A DNA stretch of 51,723 nt from Chloroflexia bacterium (GTDB lineage: Bacteria > Chloroflexota > Chloroflexia > QHBQ01 > JADMIH01), in NCBI GenBank assembly GCA_045805005.1, contig JBJMMB010000340.1:1-51723 (forward strand). Direction: 5' to 3'. A program made the position numbers and the translations under genes. The notes beneath the pieces were generated by a model, which did not search any database, was not told the DNA's origin, and saw only the letters and a list, made by a program, of their open reading frames with translations. Positions 8,747 to 48,830 of the stretch are shown here, piece after piece; positions within the stretch are counted from its first letter, which is position 1; each line of letters starts with the position of its first letter.

Positions 8747-10290
8747 TCGGGGATCAGCGCTTGGGCGTCAGGGATCAAGCAGACACGGACGACGATGGAC
8801 GATGGACACTCGACGATGGAGATGCGGTTGCAGATTTGACGACCCCATCGTCCATCGTCCATCGTCCATCGTCCGCCCCTAACCCAACCCCCGGCCCCCG
8901 ACCGGCAACAGCCAATAAGGTCATCAAGTTCAGTCACGTCTCGAAGCGGTTCATCCTGCACCACGAGCGACCCCGGTCGTTCCAGGAAATGGTGGTCAAC
9001 GTGTTTGGCCTGCGCAATCCTTCTAAGCGCGGTGTGGCTATGCCAAGCCCCGAGAAAGAGGAGTTCTGGGCGCTGCGCGATGTCAACTTCAGCATCTACG
9101 CGGGCGAGGCCGTCGGCATCATCGGTGAGAATGGCTCCGGCAAATCAACGACCCTCAAGCTCATCTCCCGCATCCTCGAGCCCACCTCGGGGAGCGTATC
9201 GGTCAAGGGTAAAGTCTCAGCGCTGCTGGAGCTGGGCACCGGCTTCCACCCCGACCTCACGGGCCGCGAAAACATATTCCTCAACGGTTCTCTCCTCGGA
9301 ATCTCAAGGAGGGAGATGAGCCGGCGCTACGACCAGATTGTGGACTTCGCGGAGATCGGCGAGTTCATCGACACACCCATCAAGCACTACTCGTCGGGCA
9401 TGGTCATGCGGCTTGGGTTCGCCGTGGCGATCAACGTGGCCCCCGACATCCTGCTTACGGACGAGGTCCTGGCTGTGGGCGACGAAGCCTTCCAGCGCAA
9501 ATGCCTCGACTACATCGCGCAGCTCCGCAAGCAGGGCGTGACCATCGTGTTCGTGTCTCATGCCCTCGATGCCGTGCGCTCACTCTGCCGGCGCGCCATC
9601 TGGCTCGACCACGGAAACGTGGTCGCCGACGGCCCCTCAGCCGAGATCATAGACCGCTACCTGACTTACGAGAACGAGCGGCACCGAGAGCGCATACGGT
9701 CCGAGCAGGCGGGCGACCCATTGCGGCCTGTTGCCCGGCCCCAACCGCTGGCCCCAACTGAGGACGAATCCGAAAGCCTCGAAACGGTTGAGGAATCTGC
9801 GATGGTTCAGCAGTCCGGCCCACCACCTCCCGAAACTGAACCTCAAGTGGTTGAAGCGTCACCTGTACAGGTAACCGGCGTAACCTTCATAAATGGCCAG
9901 GGTGAGGAAACTACCCTGGCCGCCACCGGCGAACCGCTCACGATCCGAATTGCGTACGATGCGAAAAGCCGGCTTAGGCAACCGGTCTTCGGGCTTGCGA
10001 TCTACACCGAGAACGGCACCCACCTGAACGGCCCCAACACACGCTTCTCAGGTCTGGAGATAGCGGAGATCGAAGGGGAAGGCTACGTAGACTACGAACT
10101 GGAATCGCTGCCCCTGCTCGCTGGCCGCTATGACGTAACGGTAGCCGTCACCGATGCGGATATGGCCCAAACCTACGTCCACCAGCACAGGGCCTACTCA
10201 TTCACGGTGCAGCCCACCCCCGGCCTCCCCGAACGCTGGGGCCTCCTATACATGCCCGCGAAATGGAGCCACGCGAAACGCGCAACCTAA
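8743..10290 (+). CDS. Wzt/TagH-like ABC exporter ATPase with a C-terminal Wzt_C-like carbohydrate-binding domain and an unusual 58-aa N-terminal extension
   Basis: ATG 8743 overlaps the permease stop (ATGA) and follows the SD GGAGAGGA (8732-8739). Walker A GENGSGKST, signature YSSGM, Walker B ILLTDE. A Pro/Glu linker leads to a beta-rich tail: VTGVTFINGQGEE...GRYDVTVAVTD. Confidence 0.85.
   Translation: MIGDQRLGVRDQADTDDDGRWTLDDGDAVADLTTPSSIVHRPSSAPNPTPGPRPATANKVIKFSHVSKRFILHHERPRSFQEMVVNVFGLRNPSKRGVAMPSPEKEEFWALRDVNFSIYAGEAVGIIGENGSGKSTTLKLISRILEPTSGSVSVKGKVSALLELGTGFHPDLTGRENIFLNGSLLGISRREMSRRYDQIVDFAEIGEFIDTPIKHYSSGMVMRLGFAVAINVAPDILLTDEVLAVGDEAFQRKCLDYIAQLRKQGVTIVFVSHALDAVRSLCRRAIWLDHGNVVADGPSAEIIDRYLTYENERHRERIRSEQAGDPLRPVARPQPLAPTEDESESLETVEESAMVQQSGPPPPETEPQVVEASPVQVTGVTFINGQGEETTLAATGEPLTIRIAYDAKSRLRQPVFGLAIYTENGTHLNGPNTRFSGLEIAEIEGEGYVDYELESLPLLAGRYDVTVAVTDADMAQTYVHQHRAYSFTVQPTPGLPERWGLLYMPAKWSHAKRAT
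8788..8874. repeat. inverted heptamer arrays GACGATG (left) and CCATCGT x4 (right) inside the 5' part of the ATPase ORF
   Basis: Left arm: GACGATG GACGATG GACACTC GACGATG GAGATG at 8791-8826. Right arm: CCATCGT x4 at 8845-8872. There is 16-bp perfect complementarity between 8791-8806 and 8851-8866, available in several registers. Confidence 0.85.
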
Positions 10291-10293
10291 AGT

Positions 10294-10391
10294 GTAAAAC
10301 GTAAAACGTAAAACGTAAGGGTGGTGGACATACTTGGATGGGGATTACCAACCATGTACGCCAACCACCATTACGTTTTACGTTTTACGAG
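10294..10391. terminator. long hairpin built from GTAAAAC heptamers; candidate bidirectional terminator between convergent genes
   Basis: GTAAAAC x3 at 10294-10314. TTACGTT TTACGTT TTACGAG at 10371-10391. 10301-10327 pairs with 10361-10388 as 18 bp perfect, 1 mismatch, 6 bp, 1 bulge, 2 bp, with a loop of about 33 nt. The right arm overlaps the pepA stop codon. No U-tract. Confidence 0.6.
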
Positions 10392-39224: not shown

Positions 39225-42200
39225 TTGACTGCCAACCCTCTTGCCCAGAGCCAATCCCCCGTGCCCGCAGGCGGGTACCCGCCCGCCAGCAGGGAAGAGC
39301 CAAAGGAGTCGTTCTGGGTACGATACCGGACGACCATTGCCCTCCTCGCGATCCTGATCCTCGCCGGCTTCTTCCGTTTCTACGGACGCGACTTCGATCA
39401 AGACACCCACCAGCACCCAGACGAGCGGTTCATAGTCGACCAGACCATGGGCCTGACCTGGCCCACGGCCAGCGCGCAGTTCTTCGACGTAGCGAATAGC
39501 CCTCTGAACCTCCGCAGGGCGGGCAAACATTACCCGTACGGCTCGCTCCCTGTGTACCTGACCAAGGGAGTGGCGTGGGCCTGGGACCAGTACGTGCCGC
39601 GCACCGACATTCATCCGGCGGGGTGGTGGTTGGGCTACGAGGGGATCACCAAGATCGGGCGCATGCTGGCCGCGCTGTTCGACCTCATAACGGTATTGCT
39701 GGTCTTTCTTATAGCGAGGCGGCTATACTCGCGCACGGCGGGATTGATAGCGGCGGCCCTGGTGGGCTTCGCCGTTACGCATATACAGATCGCACACTTC
39801 TACGCATCCGACGCTTTCCTGGTGACCTTCATGATGGGGGCCCTCTATTTCGCGGTGGTCCTTATGCAAAGGCCTTCATGGCGCGCGGCCGTGGGGGTTG
39901 GCCTCTGCCTCGGGTTGGCGGTGGCCAGTAAGGTGTCGGTGGTATTGTTCGCCGTCATCGTGATAGCGGCCATCGCCCTGAGAGCCGGCTACCGGAAGAA
40001 GACCCGCGCCCTGGGCGCCGAGTTCGATGATCCTATCGGGGTCAAGCCCGCGAGCGCCGCCGAGCGCGAGATGTCGGGCACACAGCACTTCATTCGGGGC
40101 CTGCGCTATTTAGTGATAGCAGGGGTCTGCGCCTTACTGGCCTTCGCCATCTCCGAGCCGTACGTGCTGCCCAGCTTCCAGTACTCCGCTTTCAGCGAGG
40201 GCGGCGTGCAGGCGGTGCTGAACTCCAGCCCGTTCTGGGGCGGGATCGTGGAGCAGGCGGGGATACAGAGCGGCCACGACGAGAACGACGTGCCCTACAC
40301 GCGGCAGTACGTGGGCACCATCCCCATCCTCTACCACATGCAGAACCTGGTCTTCTGGGGCATGAGCCCGATTCCAGGGGTGATAGTGGTCCTGGGCTTC
40401 CTTGTAGGACTCTGGTACGCCATTAAGCGCAGGCCAGCGGAAATATTGCTCCTGGCCGGGGCCATACCATACTGGGCCACGATCCTGATAGTCGAGACCA
40501 AGTGGATGCGCTATGTGCTGCCGCTTGTGCCCATCTACTGCATACTCGGAGCCGCCATGCTCATGCGCGGGGCCGCGTTGATGCGAAAGCTGAGCGCGCG
40601 CTCACCGTGGCTGCGCACCAGTCGCAGGCCGATGGCCGTGGTACAGCGGAACCTATTCGCCATCGTAAGTGCGGTGGCTGTCGGGGCCGCGTTCCTGTGG
40701 GCCGTGGCCTTCATGAACATCTACAGCCAGGAGCACTCGCGGGTGCAGGCATCGCGCTGGATCATGGACTTTCTGCCGACCACAATCCAGGCGGCCGGTG
40801 CTGATCGCCCGGCGATTGGAAGCAAAGAGGGATGGGACGACGAGCTTCCACTGGGAGTGCCGCCCAAGGAGGGTGAGCCCCCGCGCCAGGTTGGTGCGTT
40901 GGGGCCAAAGACCGAGTTCGGTTTATATGACGACAGGCCGGGCGACGCCGAACTACAATACATTCAAGAGCAACTCTCCAAAACCGATTACATATATATC
41001 GCAAGCAACCGGATATACGGGTCGATCAGGCACCTTCCATGGCGCTACCCCGTTCAGGACAAATTCTACGAGCTACTCTACGAGGGCAAGCTCGGCTTCG
41101 AACTGGTGCACACGCAGATGGTGACGCCGCAACTGCTCGGCATAAACTTCCCCGACCAGACGGCGGATGAGAGCTTCACCGTTTATGACCACCCGAGGGT
41201 GGACGTGTTCAAGAAGAACACCGATGTCACGGCCGATCAACTCCATATCCTGTTCCAGTCGGCCCTGACAGCTGTTACAAGGCCGGGCACCAACTACAGC
41301 ACGGCCCGACACGGCACCGTCACCGACGACCTGTCGCTTGCATACGACGTGCCCATCGCCAAGCTGGGGGACCTGAACGACTACGCGTGGAACCCCCTAG
41401 CCCAGCCTGACACGCAATGGCTGGCCGTTATTCTCTGGTTCCTGGCGATACAAGTGGTGGGCATCGTAGCCCTGCCCCTCGTGCTAATTATCTGCCGCAG
41501 GCTGCCCGACAGGGGCTATCCGCTAGCGAAGCTGGTGGGCCTTCTGCTCCTTGCCTGGGGCGTATGGACCGTTTCCAGCGCGAAGCTAATACCCTTTACC
41601 GTGTGGGGCGTCGCGTTCATGCTCGCGCTGCTGGCCGGCCTATCGTGGCTCTGCTGGCGGCTGGGGGCGCGCGCCTTGTGGGTTGAGTTGTACGCAAACA
41701 AGAAGCGGCTGATCGTCTTCTATGAGGTAATCTTCCTCGCGGCGTTCCTGGCGTTCCTTTTCGTGCGCATGCTCAACCCGGACCTGTGGCACCCGTCGCT
41801 CGGCGGCGAGAAGCCAATGGAGTTCGGGTTCCTGAACGCGGTGCTCCGCACGCCCTGGATGCCCCCGGCCGATCCCTTCTTCGCGCAGGGCTACGTCAAC
41901 TACTACTACTACGGTCAATTCATCATGGGCGTGATGATGAAGCTGATCGGGGTGGACCCCGGCCTCGGTATCAACCTGGCGATCCCCATGCTCTACGGCC
42001 TCACTTTCACGGCGGGCGCGAGCATCGTCTACAACATCGTGGCACGCGCTCAGAGGGGGAGAGGAAGCGAGCATGCCGTTTCGAGAGCGGGGATGGCCTT
42101 CGGGTTCCTCTCAGGCTTCCTTATGCTGGCCATCGGTAACATGGGTGGGGCCTATGAGTTGCTAGTTATCTGGAGGCCCGATCTCGCTGCTAAAGCTGTG

Positions 42201-45200
42201 GAGTTCGCTCGACAACTCGGCTTTACAGAGCAGTCCATCGTAACTCCGCCCCTGCGCGAGTTTGACTTCTGGGGGCCGAGCCGAATCGTGGCCCATACTA
42301 TCAACGAGTTCCCCTTCTGGAGCTTCCTCTTCGCCGACTTCCACCCGCACCTCATCGATATGCCGTTCACTCTGCTCATGGCGGCGCTGTGCCTCAACCT
42401 GGCCTTCGCAGGTCCGTTCAGGAGCCCCGCGGAGAGGGTAGCGGGGGCAACTCTAACGTCGAGGATCGGGGCCGCCTTTAGCTGGCTCTGGGGCGAAGGC
42501 TGGTCGGGGGCGCTGATGTTCGGAGTGACCGCGGTGGGGCTGGGCACACTTTTCGCGACCAACTCTTGGGACTTCCCGACCTTCGCAGCCGTCGCGGGCG
42601 GGGCCATTTTGATCGCGTTGCTCCTTGCCGGATCGAAGCGGTCAGGGCAGGCCGAGGCTAGGGGAGAGGTATCCGGCACGGCAGCCCTCGAAGAGCCCTC
42701 CACCCGCAAGCTGGACCGCAGCGACCGAGTGGCCCTGTGGGGCACCGGGATCGTCACCCTGGGTCTCCTGGCTGCGGGTTCGCTGTTGGCCTGCCTGCCC
42801 TTCTTGCTCAGTTTCAAGAACGTCTTGAAGCTGGAAGTGCGCCCTCTGGTTGACGGAGGTGTAATCCCAGATACCAGCGAGATCATGCACCGAACCACTG
42901 TTGGGGAGTACCTGATGATCTGGGTGCTCTTCGTATTCGTGGCAAGCTGCTACCTGATAGCGCGGCTGTGGGCGTTCCCCTGGCGGGCGGCGGCGAGCGA
43001 ACTTGGCCGGATGGTCGGCATAGGAGGCCCGTCGCCATCGCGCACCATGGTACCGGAGGGCGCGGCGGCGTTTTCACTGATGCCGGCCCACGAGGGGCGG
43101 CTGGTGCCCGCGATGGCAGGAGCCTCTCCGGCGGGCATGAGCATAGGCGCATCGCCGCCCATCACTATTGGCCCAAGCCCAATGGCGTTTTCTGCGGAGC
43201 GCGGAGACGGCGATGGCCTGACCACCGAGCCCGTACAATACGACGATAACGACCGCGAGGACTCCGGTCCCGAGGGCCGGTCAGGAAGGGGCGTGGAGGT
43301 GCTCGACGCCCAGCCGGCGTCCGATGAGGCGTATGACTTCAGCGCTTCGTCGCTAGGCATCCCGGAGCCCGCCAGTGTGGGCGCTGATATGCCATCGAAC
43401 GGTGCGGCAGGCAGCATGGAGACCTACCCCGCTGACGGAAACGGCCATGTGCCGGACGGGCACGCCGTTGTGGCCGGGAACTGGCTCGCGGAGGCTCACC
43501 AGCAGAGCCAGGCGGTAGTGGCTCCCGTGCAGCGGCCCGAGTCGCCAGGCGTCATTCCGCTGTGGGCCGGGCTCGGACTGCTTGGGCTTACAGTCGCTTT
43601 GGTCGGCCTGCAGTTAGCGACCGGGCAATGGCTGCTGGCTCTTCTGGCGGCGCTGGCGGGCGGCATCATGGCTACCAGCCTCGCCACCTCGCGCTCGGCG
43701 TCGGCCCTCACCACAAGTATGCTGCTCTTCGCCGCGCTGGCGGTGTCAGCGGGTGTTGAAGTCGTCTATCTTGCCGACCACCTCCGGGGCGGCGACATGT
43801 ACCGCATGAACACGGTATTCAAGTTCTACATTCAAGTCTGGCTGCTCTACGGCGCGGGTTCGGCGGCGGCCATATACTACATCCTCTACGGTGTGCGCGA
43901 GCGTATGCCGGAATCGAAAAGGCGCAGCGACACCGCGACGGCCATGGCGGCTCCCGCCGCCGTAGCATACGGCCAGGGAGGCGAGGCGCCGGTGACCGGC
44001 GAGGGCATGGCGCCCGCGGCGGTTGTAGGCGCGGAGATGATGCAGGAGGCATGGAGTGACGGCAGCAGCTCGCAGGTGCCGGTGGAGATTGCGCCCGTGG
44101 ACGGCACAGGCGGCATCGAAGCGAACGGCAACAGCAACGGTACGCCTTCTGTTTCGGAAGCCGGTGAGCAGGTGCCCTGGGCGGGCCAGACTATACCACT
44201 GGTCGCCGGGAGCGCAGAGAGCGTTGCTCCGGTTCTAGAAGAGGGGGACAGCGCGGCTGCCGCCGGGCCGACGGCCAACGGCGACGTACCGCCCGCCCTC
44301 GCGGCAGAGAGCACACCGGCGCCCACCCGTACTGGGCCGCTCCACAACTGGCTTGTGTGGTCCGACGAGGACACGGAGTTGGGCGAGGAGAGCCCGGCTG
44401 CCGCGCCCCAGGACGTGTCGCCCGCTCCTGTGCAGGAGCAGCGGCACATTGAAGTGCTGCCACCCGCACCGCCAGCACCGGCGCCCAGCTATGTCATGCC
44501 TGTGGCGGAAAATCCAACGATGACGGTTGGGCCGAAGCTGAAAATGACCCCTGTAAAGATTGCCTTCTCGGTTGGGTTCCTGGTGCTGCTGGCGATGGCG
44601 CTGACCTTCACCTGGAACGGGACAATTGACCGCGTGAGCGCGGGCAAGCGCTTCCCGCAGCCGCCGGCCTTCGGTACGCTCGACGGGAGGGCGTATATGG
44701 AGACGGGCCAGTATGGGCCGATAAACAGCGGCACAAATGAGTCGCCCGGCTCGGTGATGATCAACCTGAAGTACGACTATGAAGCCATCCAATGGCTCAA
44801 CCAGCACGTGCCCGGTCTCAGAGTTATTATGGAAGGGCCCTACGAGTACTACCGCGACGGCGGCATGCGCGTGGCGGCCAACACCGGCCTGCCGATGATC
44901 GTGGGCGGCCTGCACCAGGGTGAGCAGCGCTACGATTGGCTGGTCGGGGAGCGCGACGGGGACGCGAGGACCCTGCTGACCACCCAGGACCCGCAGGTGG
45001 CGCTGACTATCCTCAGCAAATACGACGTGGACTACATCTACCTGGGCCAATTGGAGCAGGCGCGCGCCGGGGCAGGGCTGGCGAAGTTCGCCCAACTGGC
45101 CGACCCTAAAGTGGGCGTGCTCACCGAGGTCTTCAGGAGCCAGACCCCCAGCGGTATCAAGGGGACGATCATTTACCAGGTTAACAAGGGCGACAAGGCC

Positions 45201-45818
45201 CCAAGCAAACTGGTGGGTGCGCCGGTTCAAGGCTCAGGCGTGGCCGGAGTGTCGATCACACCGCTGCCCACAATGACCCCCACCCCGGTGCCGACGCCGC
45301 CCACGAACAACCCCGAGTTGAAGGGCTTGATGGCCGCCGTGGCGGCCGATCCCACAAACGTCGACACGCACATGAAGCTGGTCGATTGGTATCGCAGCAA
45401 TAACTACTGGCCCGATGCCGTCCGCGAACTGGAGGCCCTTGTGGTCCAACGGCCGCAGGACATCGCAGTGAGGCACCAGCTTGGCGACGCCTACGATCAG
45501 CTCGGGCAGAAGGACAACGCCCTGAAGGCTTATATAGACGCCCGTGACATCGATCCGAAGAACGCCGCCGGCCACAATAAGTTAGGCATCGCGTATCTCG
45601 ATCGCCACAAGTACGACGACGCCGAGAAATCGTTCAACGCCGCGGTCCAAGCCGACCCTGCATTCACCGAGGCGTACCTCCACCTTGCAGAGGTGTACGT
45701 CCAGAAGGGCAACGTGCCCAAAGCCAAAGAGGCCCTGCAATCGGCCATCGACAAAGCCAAGGAGCCCGATGATCCGTGGGCCAAGGAAGCGCGTACGCGC
45801 CTGGCGGGGATGAAGTAG
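39225..45818 (+). CDS. 2197-aa polytopic membrane protein: N-terminal GT-C (PMT_2/ArnT-like) module, DUF2298 'YYY' module with two long low-complexity inserts, and C-terminal TPR repeats
   Basis: ORF track, TTG start. GT-C-like first loop: FRFYGRDFDQDTHQHPDERFIV. DUF2298 motifs shared with the next gene: LPDRGYPLAKL, YVNYYYYGQF, FPFWSFLFADFHPHLIDMP, MNTVFKFYIQVWLLYG, LSKYDVDYIYLGQLE. TPR-like tail: AVRELEALVVQRPQDIAVRHQLGDAYDQLGQKDNALKAY... Confidence 0.85.
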   Translation: MTANPLAQSQSPVPAGGYPPASREEPKESFWVRYRTTIALLAILILAGFFRFYGRDFDQDTHQHPDERFIVDQTMGLTWPTASAQFFDVANSPLNLRRAGKHYPYGSLPVYLTKGVAWAWDQYVPRTDIHPAGWWLGYEGITKIGRMLAALFDLITVLLVFLIARRLYSRTAGLIAAALVGFAVTHIQIAHFYASDAFLVTFMMGALYFAVVLMQRPSWRAAVGVGLCLGLAVASKVSVVLFAVIVIAAIALRAGYRKKTRALGAEFDDPIGVKPASAAEREMSGTQHFIRGLRYLVIAGVCALLAFAISEPYVLPSFQYSAFSEGGVQAVLNSSPFWGGIVEQAGIQSGHDENDVPYTRQYVGTIPILYHMQNLVFWGMSPIPGVIVVLGFLVGLWYAIKRRPAEILLLAGAIPYWATILIVETKWMRYVLPLVPIYCILGAAMLMRGAALMRKLSARSPWLRTSRRPMAVVQRNLFAIVSAVAVGAAFLWAVAFMNIYSQEHSRVQASRWIMDFLPTTIQAAGADRPAIGSKEGWDDELPLGVPPKEGEPPRQVGALGPKTEFGLYDDRPGDAELQYIQEQLSKTDYIYIASNRIYGSIRHLPWRYPVQDKFYELLYEGKLGFELVHTQMVTPQLLGINFPDQTADESFTVYDHPRVDVFKKNTDVTADQLHILFQSALTAVTRPGTNYSTARHGTVTDDLSLAYDVPIAKLGDLNDYAWNPLAQPDTQWLAVILWFLAIQVVGIVALPLVLIICRRLPDRGYPLAKLVGLLLLAWGVWTVSSAKLIPFTVWGVAFMLALLAGLSWLCWRLGARALWVELYANKKRLIVFYEVIFLAAFLAFLFVRMLNPDLWHPSLGGEKPMEFGFLNAVLRTPWMPPADPFFAQGYVNYYYYGQFIMGVMMKLIGVDPGLGINLAIPMLYGLTFTAGASIVYNIVARAQRGRGSEHAVSRAGMAFGFLSGFLMLAIGNMGGAYELLVIWRPDLAAKAVEFARQLGFTEQSIVTPPLREFDFWGPSRIVAHTINEFPFWSFLFADFHPHLIDMPFTLLMAALCLNLAFAGPFRSPAERVAGATLTSRIGAAFSWLWGEGWSGALMFGVTAVGLGTLFATNSWDFPTFAAVAGGAILIALLLAGSKRSGQAEARGEVSGTAALEEPSTRKLDRSDRVALWGTGIVTLGLLAAGSLLACLPFLLSFKNVLKLEVRPLVDGGVIPDTSEIMHRTTVGEYLMIWVLFVFVASCYLIARLWAFPWRAAASELGRMVGIGGPSPSRTMVPEGAAAFSLMPAHEGRLVPAMAGASPAGMSIGASPPITIGPSPMAFSAERGDGDGLTTEPVQYDDNDREDSGPEGRSGRGVEVLDAQPASDEAYDFSASSLGIPEPASVGADMPSNGAAGSMETYPADGNGHVPDGHAVVAGNWLAEAHQQSQAVVAPVQRPESPGVIPLWAGLGLLGLTVALVGLQLATGQWLLALLAALAGGIMATSLATSRSASALTTSMLLFAALAVSAGVEVVYLADHLRGGDMYRMNTVFKFYIQVWLLYGAGSAAAIYYILYGVRERMPESKRRSDTATAMAAPAAVAYGQGGEAPVTGEGMAPAAVVGAEMMQEAWSDGSSSQVPVEIAPVDGTGGIEANGNSNGTPSVSEAGEQVPWAGQTIPLVAGSAESVAPVLEEGDSAAAAGPTANGDVPPALAAESTPAPTRTGPLHNWLVWSDEDTELGEESPAAAPQDVSPAPVQEQRHIEVLPPAPPAPAPSYVMPVAENPTMTVGPKLKMTPVKIAFSVGFLVLLAMALTFTWNGTIDRVSAGKRFPQPPAFGTLDGRAYMETGQYGPINSGTNESPGSVMINLKYDYEAIQWLNQHVPGLRVIMEGPYEYYRDGGMRVAANTGLPMIVGGLHQGEQRYDWLVGERDGDARTLLTTQDPQVALTILSKYDVDYIYLGQLEQARAGAGLAKFAQLADPKVGVLTEVFRSQTPSGIKGTIIYQVNKGDKAPSKLVGAPVQGSGVAGVSITPLPTMTPTPVPTPPTNNPELKGLMAAVAADPTNVDTHMKLVDWYRSNNYWPDAVRELEALVVQRPQDIAVRHQLGDAYDQLGQKDNALKAYIDARDIDPKNAAGHNKLGIAYLDRHKYDDAEKSFNAAVQADPAFTEAYLHLAEVYVQKGNVPKAKEALQSAIDKAKEPDDPWAKEARTRLAGMK

Positions 45819-45882
45819 TTACGAATTACGAATTACGAATTACGAATTACGATGCAGCCACTTGGTAATTCGTAATTCGTAA
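45819..45882. repeat. inverted heptamer arrays TTACGAA x5 and TAATTCG x2.5 forming an 18-bp perfect hairpin between the two DUF2298 genes
   Basis: TTACGAA units begin at 45819, immediately after the stop TAG at 45816-45818. 45833-45850 (TTACGAATTACGAATTAC) is the exact reverse complement of 45865-45882. The loop is 14 nt (GATGCAGCCACTTG). Confidence 0.85.
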
Positions 45883-45902
45883 TGAGCGAAGCGAGGGGCA
45901 GC

Positions 45903-48830
45903 ATGGCGGATGCGATAGTATGGTGGCTTACCCTTGAGGTCTTAGGGATCGCGGCGCTTCCAGTGGCGGGGGTGCTGCTGAGACCGCTGCCGGATAGAGG
46001 GTACGCCGTATCCAAGGTGCTGGGCATATTGCTGGTGGGTTGGCTGGCGTATACGCTGGCGATGATAAAGCTGCTTGGGTTCGGGCGCGGATCGCTCATC
46101 TTATGCACCCTGGTGCTCGCGGGCTTCTCGGGGTGGCTGCTCTACAGGAACAAGCGGGCCCTGCTCGGCGAGCTCTCTGCGCGCTACAGGACGGGCAGGT
46201 TCATCAGATACATTGTCGTCTCGGAGGTGCTGTTCGCCCTGGCGTACACAATCTGGGCCATCGTCAGGGCCTATAACCCCGACATTTTCGCGCAAGAGAA
46301 GTTCATGGACTTCGGCTTCTTGAACGCGATATTGAAGAGCGGGATGTTTCCGCCCAACGACATGTGGTTCGCCGGGCAGTCGATCAACTACTACTACTTC
46401 GGCTACGTGCTGATGGCGGGGATCACGGCCCTGAGCGGCGTGCCAAGCCAGGTGGCTTTCAACCTCGCCAACGTAACCCTATTCGCGCTCACCGCTCTCG
46501 CTGCGTTCGGCTTCGCATACAACCTGGTGGCGAGCAGCCTGGGTCGCTACGCGGGCGTGAGAGCGACCCAGGCCGCGACCAGGGTGCTCACTTCCGTGCC
46601 GAGGAAGAAGGCAAATAGTCAGGGGTCGGGGGTCGGGGATCGGGGGTCGGTACCGGTTGGGCGAAAATCGGGTGCGGCGGATACGCCAGTTGGCTCGGTT
46701 AGGCGCTCCACAGCAGCGGAGACGCCCGTGGCTTCGGTAACCGGCTCCGTCGCCGTGCTGGACAAGAAGCAGGCCAAAGCTCCCGCCAGGCAGGGCAACG
46801 GGCGAGAACCGGGGCCTATGACGGAGGTACCGCTAGAGGCCCGGCAAGGGGCGTCCACCGGACCTGCTTACGAGCCGGTAGATTTCTTGTCTGACGAGGC
46901 GCCGCGCGTGCCGTTCTTCCTGTCACCCTACATTTACGCCATACTCGCCGCGCTCATGGTGGTGGCGATGGGCAACCTTACCACGATGTTTGCCGTGAAA
47001 GACCCCTCGCAGGCGTCGACAGCGAACGGCTGGCGATATTGCTTCAACTGCCAGACGCCCAGCACTTTCAACTGGTGGAACCCTTCGCGTGTGGTCCAGG
47101 ACTACCGGACCACGCAGGCACCCGGCCAGCCTGCCCAGAAGGAGACGGTGGGCTACGAGACGATCAACGAGTTCCCGGCCTTCTCATTTCTGCTGGCCGA
47201 CATGCACCCCCACGTACTCGCACTGCCCGTGGTTATTCTCACGCTGACCCTTGCCTACGGGCTCGCCCGGCGCAAAGTGCTGCGGGCCACTAGCTGGCTC
47301 GATGGCCTCCCGCGGGGCTTTGAGGCGTGGGTAGCCATCGTGATTACAGCGATCGCGGTGGGCTCCCTGTACGCGACGAACACCTGGGACTTCCCGACCT
47401 ACCTGCTCGTCGTGCTGGCAGGGCTTGGACTGCCTTACCTCGCGGCCGAGGGCGGGTGGCGGCGCTTCTTGCCCTGGATCGTGCAGTCGGGGCTGGTCGT
47501 CGTGCTGAGCGTTGTGTCGTTCGCGCTTTTCTACCTGACGTTCAAGGCCCCGCTCTTAGGCGAGCCCGGGCCGATACCGGAGAACCTTGCCAGGCTGCCA
47601 ATCGTGCGTGGGCTCCTTCAGAAGCTGAGCGCCCTGCTCATAATCAACACAGCGGACAAGACCATCCTTGGCTTCATGGTGATCTTCGGGATCTTCCTGC
47701 TGGCCATCGTCGTATGGATTCTCTACGAGTTCATCGCTCCTGTTTTGAGCCGGTGGAGCAGCGGCGAGGCCCCTGGGCGCGGCCTGGCCTGGCTGGGCGG
47801 CATCGTCCTCGTTATCGAGGCGCTCGCCCTGCTGACCCGGTTCCCGCTACTGGCCTTCCTGGGGCCGCTGGTGGTGCTGTCCGTCTACTTGATCTGGACG
47901 ACACCGGGCGCAATCGAGCGCAACCTGGCGCTGGCGATGTTCGCGATCGGGGGGACCATCGGCGTGGCGGTGGAGGTTGTGTTCCTGCGCGACAACTTCC
48001 AGATGAGGATGAATACCCTCTTCAAGTTCTACTACCAGATCTGGATACTGTGGGCGCTGGTGGCCGCATACGCAGTGTGGAGGGTATTGTACGCGGCGTT
48101 CAGAGTAGTCGAGGAACGCGACTCGCGTGGGCGGGCGGTGGTTACCTCCGGACCGCTGGGCGCGAAGGTTGGAGCGGCAACCTGGGCCGGGGTCTTCGGG
48201 CTGCTCGTGCTGTCGGGGCTGATGTATTCTTACTTCGGGCCGATGAGCAGGCAGGTCGGACAGCAGCCGGTGTTCAGGGGCCTGGACGGCTCGACCCACT
48301 TCATAGGGAGCTCGCCCGGCGACTACGACGCGATCTACTGGCTGAAGGAGCACGCGGGCGGCTCTGACGTGGTGCTGGAGTGCTGCAGCACGGAGTACGA
48401 GACCCACGCGGGGCGCATGTCGGCCTTCACGGGCGTGCCCACGCTGCTGGCCTGGGACAACTCGCACGAGGCGCTCTGGCGCAGCAGCCAGCCGGCCCTT
48501 GCGGCTGAGATTCCGGTGCGGAGGAACATGGTGAACTCCATCTACCAGGGGGTTGACCCGACCAGCCACGCCCCGCTGACCGCGCAGCGCTTGCTGGAGT
48601 TGCTTCGCCAGTACAAGGTGACTTACGTTACGGTGGGGGCGTCGGAGCGGAACGAGGCGGGCGCGCAGGAGAGGAACCCCAACGAGCTGCTCAAGCCGGA
48701 AGCAGAGGCCATCTTCAAGGAAGCCCTGGCCCCGGCCTTCACCTCCGGCTCCACGGTGGTGTATAAGGTGCCTCCCGCCGTGGGCGGCACAGGGCAGACC
48801 AACCCCTCGGGGCCGGTAGCCCATCCATAG
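45903..48830 (+). CDS. DUF2298 'YYY' family polytopic membrane protein (paralog of the central part of the 2197-aa protein)
   Basis: The ORF track gives 45882..48830, but ATG 45882 lies inside the hairpin arm and has no SD. ATG 45903 (MADAIVWWLTLEVLGIAALP) follows GAGGGG (45893-45898). Motifs: LPDRGYAVSKV, SINYYYFGYV, FPAFSFLLADMHPHVLALP, MNTLFKFYYQIWILW, LRQYKVTYVTVGASE. Confidence 0.85.
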   Translation: MADAIVWWLTLEVLGIAALPVAGVLLRPLPDRGYAVSKVLGILLVGWLAYTLAMIKLLGFGRGSLILCTLVLAGFSGWLLYRNKRALLGELSARYRTGRFIRYIVVSEVLFALAYTIWAIVRAYNPDIFAQEKFMDFGFLNAILKSGMFPPNDMWFAGQSINYYYFGYVLMAGITALSGVPSQVAFNLANVTLFALTALAAFGFAYNLVASSLGRYAGVRATQAATRVLTSVPRKKANSQGSGVGDRGSVPVGRKSGAADTPVGSVRRSTAAETPVASVTGSVAVLDKKQAKAPARQGNGREPGPMTEVPLEARQGASTGPAYEPVDFLSDEAPRVPFFLSPYIYAILAALMVVAMGNLTTMFAVKDPSQASTANGWRYCFNCQTPSTFNWWNPSRVVQDYRTTQAPGQPAQKETVGYETINEFPAFSFLLADMHPHVLALPVVILTLTLAYGLARRKVLRATSWLDGLPRGFEAWVAIVITAIAVGSLYATNTWDFPTYLLVVLAGLGLPYLAAEGGWRRFLPWIVQSGLVVVLSVVSFALFYLTFKAPLLGEPGPIPENLARLPIVRGLLQKLSALLIINTADKTILGFMVIFGIFLLAIVVWILYEFIAPVLSRWSSGEAPGRGLAWLGGIVLVIEALALLTRFPLLAFLGPLVVLSVYLIWTTPGAIERNLALAMFAIGGTIGVAVEVVFLRDNFQMRMNTLFKFYYQIWILWALVAAYAVWRVLYAAFRVVEERDSRGRAVVTSGPLGAKVGAATWAGVFGLLVLSGLMYSYFGPMSRQVGQQPVFRGLDGSTHFIGSSPGDYDAIYWLKEHAGGSDVVLECCSTEYETHAGRMSAFTGVPTLLAWDNSHEALWRSSQPALAAEIPVRRNMVNSIYQGVDPTSHAPLTAQRLLELLRQYKVTYVTVGASERNEAGAQERNPNELLKPEAEAIFKEALAPAFTSGSTVVYKVPPAVGGTGQTNPSGPVAHP
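46619..46653 (+). repeat. in-frame heptamer array TCGGGGG-type (5 units, 3 good) inside the DUF2298 gene
   Basis: TCAGGGG TCGGGGG TCGGGGA TCGGGGG TCGGTAC, translated as SQGSGVGDRGSV within a low-complexity insert. The first 19 nt are the reverse complement of 5211-5229. Confidence 0.75.

Follow-up and report, generated by a model that had tools for sequence, protein, structure and literature searches.

A heptamer-armed hairpin between two DUF2298 genes of a Chloroflexia bacterium, probably a gene-less relative of PF05635-bearing cassettes

The stretch of DNA analysed here, referred to as the window, comprises the 51,723 nucleotides of contig JBJMMB010000340.1 from a metagenome-assembled genome of the Chloroflexia (GCA_045805005.1; hereafter G000). 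Towards its right end two genes coding for DUF2298 proteins follow one another on the forward strand, and the gap between them is largely occupied by an inverted pair of heptanucleotide arrays that folds into a hairpin. The initial annotation had considered this hairpin a device dedicated to the two genes. It belongs instead to a dispersed family whose ends are defined and which also exists in a gene-bearing form. The features of the junction are the following:

39225..45818, forward strand: upstream gene of 2197 aa with PMT_2, DUF2298 and C-terminal TPR regions (open reading frame list, Pfam)
45816-45818, forward strand: TAG stop codon of the upstream gene (read directly)
45817..45852: 5′ arm including the AG of the stop codon, the probable extent of the element on this side
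45819-45852: 5′ arm, TTACGAA x4 + TTACGA (Tandem Repeats Finder: period 7, 4.9 copies, 100% matches)
45832..45883, forward strand: minimum-energy RNA hairpin, 19 bp and a 12-nt loop (RNA folding)
45853-45864: loop of 12 nt, TGCAGCCACTTG (read directly)
45865-45883: 3′ arm, (GTAATTC)x2.7 (Tandem Repeats Finder, 100% matches)
45882..45884, forward strand: first in-frame ATG of the downstream open reading frame, in the stem and not the real start
45893..45898, forward strand: Shine-Dalgarno-like GAGGGG, 4 nt before the start codon, in an unstructured stretch
45903..48830, forward strand: downstream DUF2298 gene of 975 aa with its true start at ATG 45903 (Pfam, E 2.7e-106)

The stem is formed by 19 perfect pairs that join 45832-45850 (ATTACGAATTACGAATTAC) to 45865-45883, five of them G-C and the rest A-U. 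It had been described as a perfect hairpin of 18 bp, of which the perfection stands and the count falls one pair short. As had also been noticed, the TTACGAA array starts at 45819, on the base after the TAG of the 2197-aa gene, and the inverted array, whose end had been placed at 45882-45883, ends at 45883. The asymmetry of the arms, given as five units against about 2.5, is likewise real, with measured values of 4.9 and 2.7. Because the arms hold unequal numbers of units, they could also pair in two other registers, each of them displaced 7 nt toward the stop codon and with a larger loop, which agrees with the alternative registers that had been proposed. The register of minimum energy leaves the first 13 nt past the stop unpaired. 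The 65-nt element has a predicted RNA folding energy of -24 kcal/mol, compared with -8.6 +/- 2.5 for shuffled sequences (z -6.2), and 0 of 200 shuffles fold as well; the value reaches -36.8 in a 121-nt context, and the opposite strand of the element folds equally well (-24.6). A 14-mer is present 6 times in the window, every one at the hairpin site, where 0 would be expected. At its outer ends, the element reads AGTTACG on the 5′ side, with the AG supplied by the stop codon. As this is one mismatch away from AATTACG, the canonical first unit described below, the last 2 nt of the stop codon probably belong to the element as well. The 3′ arm ends CGTAAT (followed by g), one base shorter than the canonical CGTAATT. 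The loop is nearest to the ACGA-TSCAGGCC loop subfamily, found at C51:5348, C297:22875 and C319:3955.

Both flanking genes are well defined. The upstream protein matches DUF2298 with E 5e-100, in addition to PMT_2 and TPR families. For the downstream gene, the initial annotation had pointed out that the first ATG is buried in the stem and had preferred the ATG at 45903, backed by a Shine-Dalgarno sequence. In fact, the A and the T of ATG 45882-45884 lie within the stem, and ATG 45903 lies 20 nt past it. The N-termini of 19 out of 19 homologues conform to M/L/V-[AGSV]-[DE]-[ATP]-x-x-WW and align to ATG 45903 (here MADAIVWW), and by this alignment the start of the downstream gene is 45903, not 45882, as the annotation had it. 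The stretch that holds the Shine-Dalgarno sequence and the start (45884-45930) is unstructured (z +1.07). A comparison of unit counts between strains found no other contig encoding an identical downstream protein. A separate (GTCGGGG)x4.7 array lies at 46618-46650, within the coding region of the downstream gene.

Heptamer arrays of this kind are abundant throughout G000, an assembly of 5.05 Mb in 549 contigs with 62.5% GC and 78% completeness. Perfect arrays of at least three copies number 432 for period 7 and 41 each for periods 6 and 8, an enrichment of about 10-fold. When arrays of at least 15 nt are considered, 196 inverted heptamer pairs are found, 37 of them of the TTACGAA/AATTACG type (76 loci); two further pairs of other units lie in the window itself, at 8791-8874 (GACGATG) and 10294-10389 (GTAAAAC). 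Dozens of different units coexist in the genome, the dominant families being AAAACGT, AATTACG, ATTGCGT, ACGATGG and AATGCGT, and every major family uses one arm order only (41/41, 37/37 for AATTACG, 29/29, 27/27 and 26/26). The arms are typically about 21 nt long, roughly two turns of double-stranded RNA, and the loops of the TTACGAA family are short (8-16 nt) and poorly conserved.

The position of these pairs relative to genes also departs from expectation. Among the pairs that fall in intergenic gaps, 84 lie in co-directional, 19 in convergent and 13 in divergent ones, compared with 68, 20.5 and 27 expected from the gap counts (p 0.004), and weighting the gaps by length strengthens the test. 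For about 70 of the 84 pairs in co-directional gaps, the start of the hairpin falls between 11 nt before and 17 nt after the end of the upstream open reading frame, and hairpins in such gaps typically stop 6-30 nt short of the next start; in convergent gaps the hairpin spans the whole distance from stop to stop. Another 55 pairs were called coding, a class that is uncertain because it consists mostly of ACGATGG units, which contain no stop codon in any frame. No bias of arm length with respect to gene direction was detected (36 vs 30, p 0.23).

Several other unit families of G000 have peculiarities of their own. The (CGTAAAA)n/AAAACGT hairpins (window 10294-10389; 41 loci genome-wide) share, without exception, a conserved palindrome of about 52 nt between their arms, gggtggtaggcgtacttggttcg...cgaaccaagtacgcctaccaccc, and to judge from this core they are not plain simple repeats but a dispersed element that is sharply defined. 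Hairpins armed with AATGCGT and with ATTGCGT, units that differ by a single base, contain a common asymmetric core, gggaggaagggtagagggttctaccacccaagc, in either orientation (e.g., C107:6092, C526:5302, C258:6316). The (GACGATG)n/(CCATCGT)n hairpins (window 8791-8874) are stop-free in every frame, and nearly all 27 copies of this family fall inside open reading frames by crude calls, so that either the hairpins are translated or the frames are over-extended.

The distribution of the AATTACG hairpin extends well beyond this genome. The exact pattern, (AATTACG)2.5-N4-30-(AATTCGT...), is present in 17 of the 26 genomes of the genus and absent from 400 sampled Chloroflexota genomes outside it. A scan of one genome per species yielded at least 117 stretches that carry it, in at least six phyla (Chloroflexota, Acidobacteriota, Cyanobacteria, Bacteroidota, Planctomycetota and Desulfobacterota), and the carriers include closed chromosomes, among them those of Pyrinomonadaceae and Pseudanabaena, and cultured isolates such as Nostoc linckia, Chitinophaga sp. 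RAB17, Lunatibacter salilacus and Pseudanabaena sp. lw0831. Local GC content at these hairpins ranges from 31 to 67%, and the loops differ among taxa. The arm order is kept, with AATTACG followed by CGTAATT 44 times against 2 for the reverse in five genomes of three other phyla. The outer ends are also fixed: of 118 cross-phylum copies, 91 open their 5′ arm exactly with AATTACG (about 17 expected) and 87 close their 3′ arm with CGTAATT, and the canonical AATTACG terminus is found in 18 of the 37 copies of G000. The loop-side ends of the arms vary while the outer ends stay in fixed phase. In the full texts of open-access papers and preprints that were searched, AATTACG repeat strings were not found. 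A phage vector was considered and rejected, as 2.9 million viral contigs contained 3 matches. In Chitinophaga sp. RAB17 (G433, e.g., C1:418330-418398), most of the 26 AATTACG-arm matches flank one and the same conserved palindromic core, GGATTTGTGGGGAGAT...ATCTCCCCACAAATCC.

The same arms also enclose genes, chiefly of family PF05635, the 23S rRNA intervening-sequence protein (IVP, or S23p), a four-helix bundle of about 120 aa related to Avd. A metagenome scan for AATTACG and CGTAATT arms 430-460 nt apart retrieved 81 stretches, with an IVP-like open reading frame inside 60 of 80 interiors; two of the enclosed frames were confirmed as PF05635 (E 1e-28 to 1e-31), with weak similarity to bAvd. 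The outer termini of these gene-bearing copies are those of the short hairpins, AATTACG in 50 of 58 and CGTAATT in 51 of 58. At L214 (G440), a PF05635 gene lies within (AATTATG)3...(CATAATT)2 arms, 8 nt after the stop codon of an upstream gene, and a genus-mate of G000 carries an AATTACG-armed cassette with a split PF05635 match (G009:C310:19497-19972). The matches of this last copy lie in two frames at G009:C310:19566-19872 (profile positions 2-65 and 52-105), and the gene is probably frameshifted and decaying.

At the level of whole genomes, PF05635 is present in 22 of 25 genus-mates, in 1-11 copies each, and all five cross-phylum hairpin genomes hold it (1-15 matches) compared with 1 of 14 control genomes. 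Of the 30 PF05635 genes examined in the genus, 28 lie within 200 nt of a period-7 array and 17 are bracketed by exact inverse arrays, the latter arrangement being found for 8 of 30 genes in other phyla. Units that flank PF05635 genes in the genus (ACCGAGT, AGTGGTC, TGAGGAC) recur in G000, where they form pairs of unchanged order with no gene between them, and no cassettes of reverse order were found in 5 genus-mates. Across the 26 genus members, hairpin counts correlate with PF05635 copy number (rho 0.47, p 0.016), a value that overstates the evidence as the genomes are kin. Some arm pairs 430-460 nt apart, on metagenome contigs L245 and L244, enclose an L22-like ribosomal protein or a ferredoxin-like open reading frame and not PF05635, which suggests that the arms can bracket ordinary genes or that each of these cases consists of two adjacent hairpins. 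At L236, L302 and other cassette loci, frames that stay open through the (AATTACG)n arms translate as LRITNYE repeats.

The copy at the DUF2298 junction shares with the cassettes the inverted arrays of fixed order, 5′-(AATTACG)n...(CGTAATT)n-3′. Its inverted termini are a trait also of miniature inverted-repeat transposable elements (MITEs), for which a target-site duplication and a parent insertion sequence with a transposase would be expected in addition. No PF05635 gene lies between its arms, the loop being only 12 nt long. In view of this loop and of the lack of a PF05635 match in G000, the copy is classified from its sequence as a gene-less derivative and not as a full cassette. An autonomous element in G000 was also sought, and the sole array-gene-inverse-array case proved to be two separate hairpins; the gene between them looks, as read from the sequence, like a HlyD-type membrane-fusion protein.

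The orthologous junction in other members of the genus gives an idea of how the hairpin came to its place. The order giant TPR gene followed by DUF2298 paralog is kept in five genomes, G000 included, with the following contents between the two genes:

G000: TTACGAA hairpin
G001: inverted (GACGACG)n...(GTCGTCC)n hairpin overlapping the TGA stop, L005 (G001:C21) ~1388-1486
G003: decayed units and (TTGGACT)2
G005: direct arrays only, abutting, (GGACGAC)4 then (AGACGAT)4, L014 (G005:C60)
G011: TAG, then 20 nt with Shine-Dalgarno sequence, then start, without any array

In the remaining members of the genus the paralog is located elsewhere and has ordinary upstream sequence. The 19 nt that follow the hairpin in G000 (gagcgaagcgaggggcagc) match the length of the 20-nt spacer of G011 and may correspond to it, which gives the 65-nt element the appearance of having been inserted right at the stop codon. 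The only conserved feature of the junction is the tendency of heptamer arrays to accumulate at such sites.

Taken together, we favour with moderate confidence a model in which the hairpin is a gene-less miniature of an AATTACG-armed cassette resembling intervening sequences (IVSs), tolerated between a stop codon and a ribosome-binding site, where it would be a putative site for RNase III or mRNA stability. According to this model, an IVS-like cassette would have lost its interior, leaving the 12-nt loop, and the element would have been inserted between the stop of the giant gene and the ribosome-binding site of its paralog, into a spacer that measures 20 nt in a relative. The hairpin in fact occupies the only portion of the short intercistronic spacer that leaves both coding sequence and ribosome-binding site intact, and few places offer this. 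Replication slippage would later have altered the unit counts to the present 4.9 and 2.7. The two genes are presumably transcribed into a bicistronic mRNA, in which the 19-bp AU-rich stem would fold and remove 52 nt from the linear path. In the folded state about 13 + 10 (~23) single-stranded nt would separate the stop from the Shine-Dalgarno sequence, a distance similar to the 20 nt seen in the ortholog that lacks a hairpin, which would explain why the insertion is tolerated.

As to what the hairpin does, the stem may act as an RNase III cleavage site and/or as a protective stem at the 3′ end of the upstream message, and would in this way uncouple the stability of the two cistrons. By analogy with IVS stems and with repetitive extragenic palindromic (REP) elements, cleavage by RNase III and/or shielding of the 3′ end of the upstream message would be its most likely effect. 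In E. coli, REP-type hairpins reportedly stabilise upstream mRNA and, when located within ~15 nt of the stop codon, are said to affect translation termination (work attributed to Newbury 1987 and to Liang, Rudd and Deutscher 2015). G000 encodes a protein with an RNase III domain at C52:6909-7289, and a role at the RNA level, in mRNA stability or processing, is plausible. The main alternative within the same identity is that of a neutral passenger, i.e., a hairpin of the same cassette-derived origin that exerts no molecular effect.

Several observations weigh against the cassette-derived model. A stem of 19 bp is barely long enough for RNase III to cleave efficiently, and arms made of simple repeats could arise by convergence. 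Neither a profile search nor tblastn finds a PF05635 gene in the assembled 78% of G000, and no mobilising enzyme or transposase-bearing parent was found. No clear target-site duplication was seen at the element, where the self-complementary AATT and TA could mask one. Recurrent neighbours of the 117 cross-phylum loci are only ABC ATPases, SDR proteins, kinases and sigma-54 activators, all of them large unrelated superfamilies. In addition, the positional statistics in G000 rest on crude gene calls based on open reading frames (4023 frames, 86% coverage).

A broader and more tentative proposal is that AATTACG hairpins and PF05635 cassettes constitute a single cross-phylum family that spreads horizontally, possibly by a mechanism involving an Avd-like IVP protein together with the RNA hairpin. 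If so, its miniatures would explain much of the heptamer excess, including the short tandemly repeated repetitive (STRR) sequences of cyanobacteria, and the locus described here would be one recent insertion. We regard this as possible but doubtful.

An alternative that dispenses with any mobile or cassette ancestry is that the hairpin arose on the spot as a simple sequence repeat (SSR), by slippage favouring 7-nt units and by template switching at quasi-palindromes. Excess of heptamer SSRs is widespread and is ascribed to polymerase slippage in PMC4692102, citing Mrazek 2007. The drift in unit counts (4.9 vs 2.7 here) and the short, poorly conserved loops of the TTACGAA family would suit such an origin, as would the arrays at the G005 junction, along which a unit mutation is seen spreading from GGACGAC to AGACGAT. 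However, slippage and template switching predict both arm orders, whereas the ratio is 37:0 in G000 and 44:2 in other phyla, and they predict random boundaries, whereas the outer termini stay in fixed phase (91/118, ~17 expected). The identical heptamer in six phyla across 31-67% GC, the conserved 50-nt cores of other unit families and the PF05635 genes enclosed by the same arms argue in the same direction, and we consider an origin on the spot unlikely.

The reading closest to the initial annotation, that of a locus-specific device for terminating or attenuating transcription past the giant gene or for gating translation of its DUF2298 paralog, has in its favour the exact location of the hairpin between the genes, starting at the stop and with an in-frame ATG in its stem, as well as the strength of the structure and the presence of arrays of some kind at the junction in 4 of the 5 syntenic genomes. 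The unit and the architecture, however, differ in each of these genomes and G011 has no array at all. A dedicated regulator of the gene pair should, by expectation, be conserved; since the junction varies, the gating claim is unsupported. Like elements follow ~100 unrelated genes, and with 196 inverted pairs in the genome (37 of the same unit) and the true start and its Shine-Dalgarno sequence lying unsequestered outside the stem, the idea that the hairpin is placed to gate the second gene finds no support. The terminator function fares no better. The stem is AU-rich, with 5 of 19 pairs G-C, and no T-tract follows it, either at the locus or across the family, whose hairpins are followed by 1.97 T in 10 nt compared with ~2.2 expected; a Rho-independent terminator was on these grounds rejected. 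Consensus scans at the locus detected neither promoter nor terminator, and a promoter within the hairpin was discarded as well. In sum, the hairpin neither acts as a terminator nor masks the real start, and a device specific to this locus seems decidedly improbable.

It could also be argued that the arrays act as double-stranded DNA, bound by a protein that recognises their sequence, for example a global regulator or a nucleoid protein, with one protomer per heptamer on both arms. In Geobacter metallireducens, paired tandem heptanucleotides on opposite strands have been annotated as predicted global-regulator sites (PMC2700814), and the conservation of an exact heptamer across phyla suggests a sequence-specific partner. 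Nevertheless, the pairs are depleted in divergent, promoter-bearing gaps and concentrated at the 3′ ends of genes, dozens of different units coexist in one genome, and the neighbours of the 117 loci include no candidate binding protein that co-occurs with them, all of which makes this possibility very remote. Finally, a REP/REPIN-type element mobilised by a RAYT, a Y1 tyrosine transposase, would likewise be a multi-copy extragenic palindrome following stop codons (PMC3116915), but it is largely refuted and next to negligible as an explanation, given that no Y1_Tnp gene was found flanked by arrays: the sole one of G000 is not, Chitinophaga sp. RAB17 has 26 pattern matches without a Y1_Tnp gene, and 20 Y1_Tnp loci in four other hairpin genomes are devoid of AATTACG arrays.

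Among the known systems that come closest to the hairpin are the IVSs of 23S rRNA. IVSs bearing an open reading frame are known in Coxiella burnetii, Leptospira, Brucella and Xanthomonas, and in that of Coxiella, heptameric repeats of variable number are part of a 28-bp terminal stem, within which RNase III cuts (PMC4990558). The likeness consists in terminal inverted repeats that form a long stem, in tandem heptamers whose number varies between strains and in the PF05635 (S23p/IVP) gene carried in the loop by full-length relatives of this hairpin. Unlike them, the present copy has no open reading frame, has a loop of 12 nt and arms made purely of perfect heptamers, and is located between protein-coding genes and not in helix 9, 25 or 45 of 23S rRNA. 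STRR and other intergenic heptamer repeats have been described in cyanobacteria, Xanthomonas and Beggiatoaceae (PMC4692102, PMC4679880, PMC2408588). These share with the hairpin the 7-nt units, the many dispersed intergenic copies, the variation in number between relatives and the cross-phylum occurrence, and the hairpin has what defines an STRR or long heptanucleotide SSR, at least three tandem 7-nt copies in dispersed and mostly intergenic positions. In Nostoc PCC 7120, the unit ATTGCGA/AATTGCG, one base from AATTACG, has 79 chromosomal and 26 plasmid copies. The published repeats are mostly direct arrays with no link to cassette genes, whereas the arrays described here come as inverted pairs in which arm order and outer ends are fixed.

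The Geobacter metallireducens sites of classes 2 and 3 (PMC2700814) resemble the hairpin in having two arrays of 3-5 tandem 7-9-nt units on opposite strands at variable distance, in many copies per genome; they differ in the sequence of the units and in having been read as regulator binding sites, with no positional analysis or cassette link. The REP and REPIN elements of Enterobacteria and Pseudomonas (PMC3116915, PMC3337134) are likewise multi-copy extragenic hairpins located after stop codons, but here a search for an associated RAYT gave none, the GTAG motif is missing and the arms are tandem heptamers. Heptamer repeats, the paired sites of Geobacter and IVS elements are each already known, and a gene-less spacer hairpin with AATTACG arms, cross-phylum fixed order and ends, and a link to PF05635 was not found described in the papers searched.

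For this locus, the analysis takes away a regulatory account that lacked support and establishes where the second DUF2298 gene starts, and the interest of the hairpin lies in the family of elements rather than in a gate for a DUF2298 gene. The same heptamer, with the same order and ends in six phyla, together with the link to PF05635, ties three puzzles to a single testable object: the excess of heptamer repeats in bacteria, the STRR-like repeats of cyanobacteria and the origin of rRNA intervening sequences.

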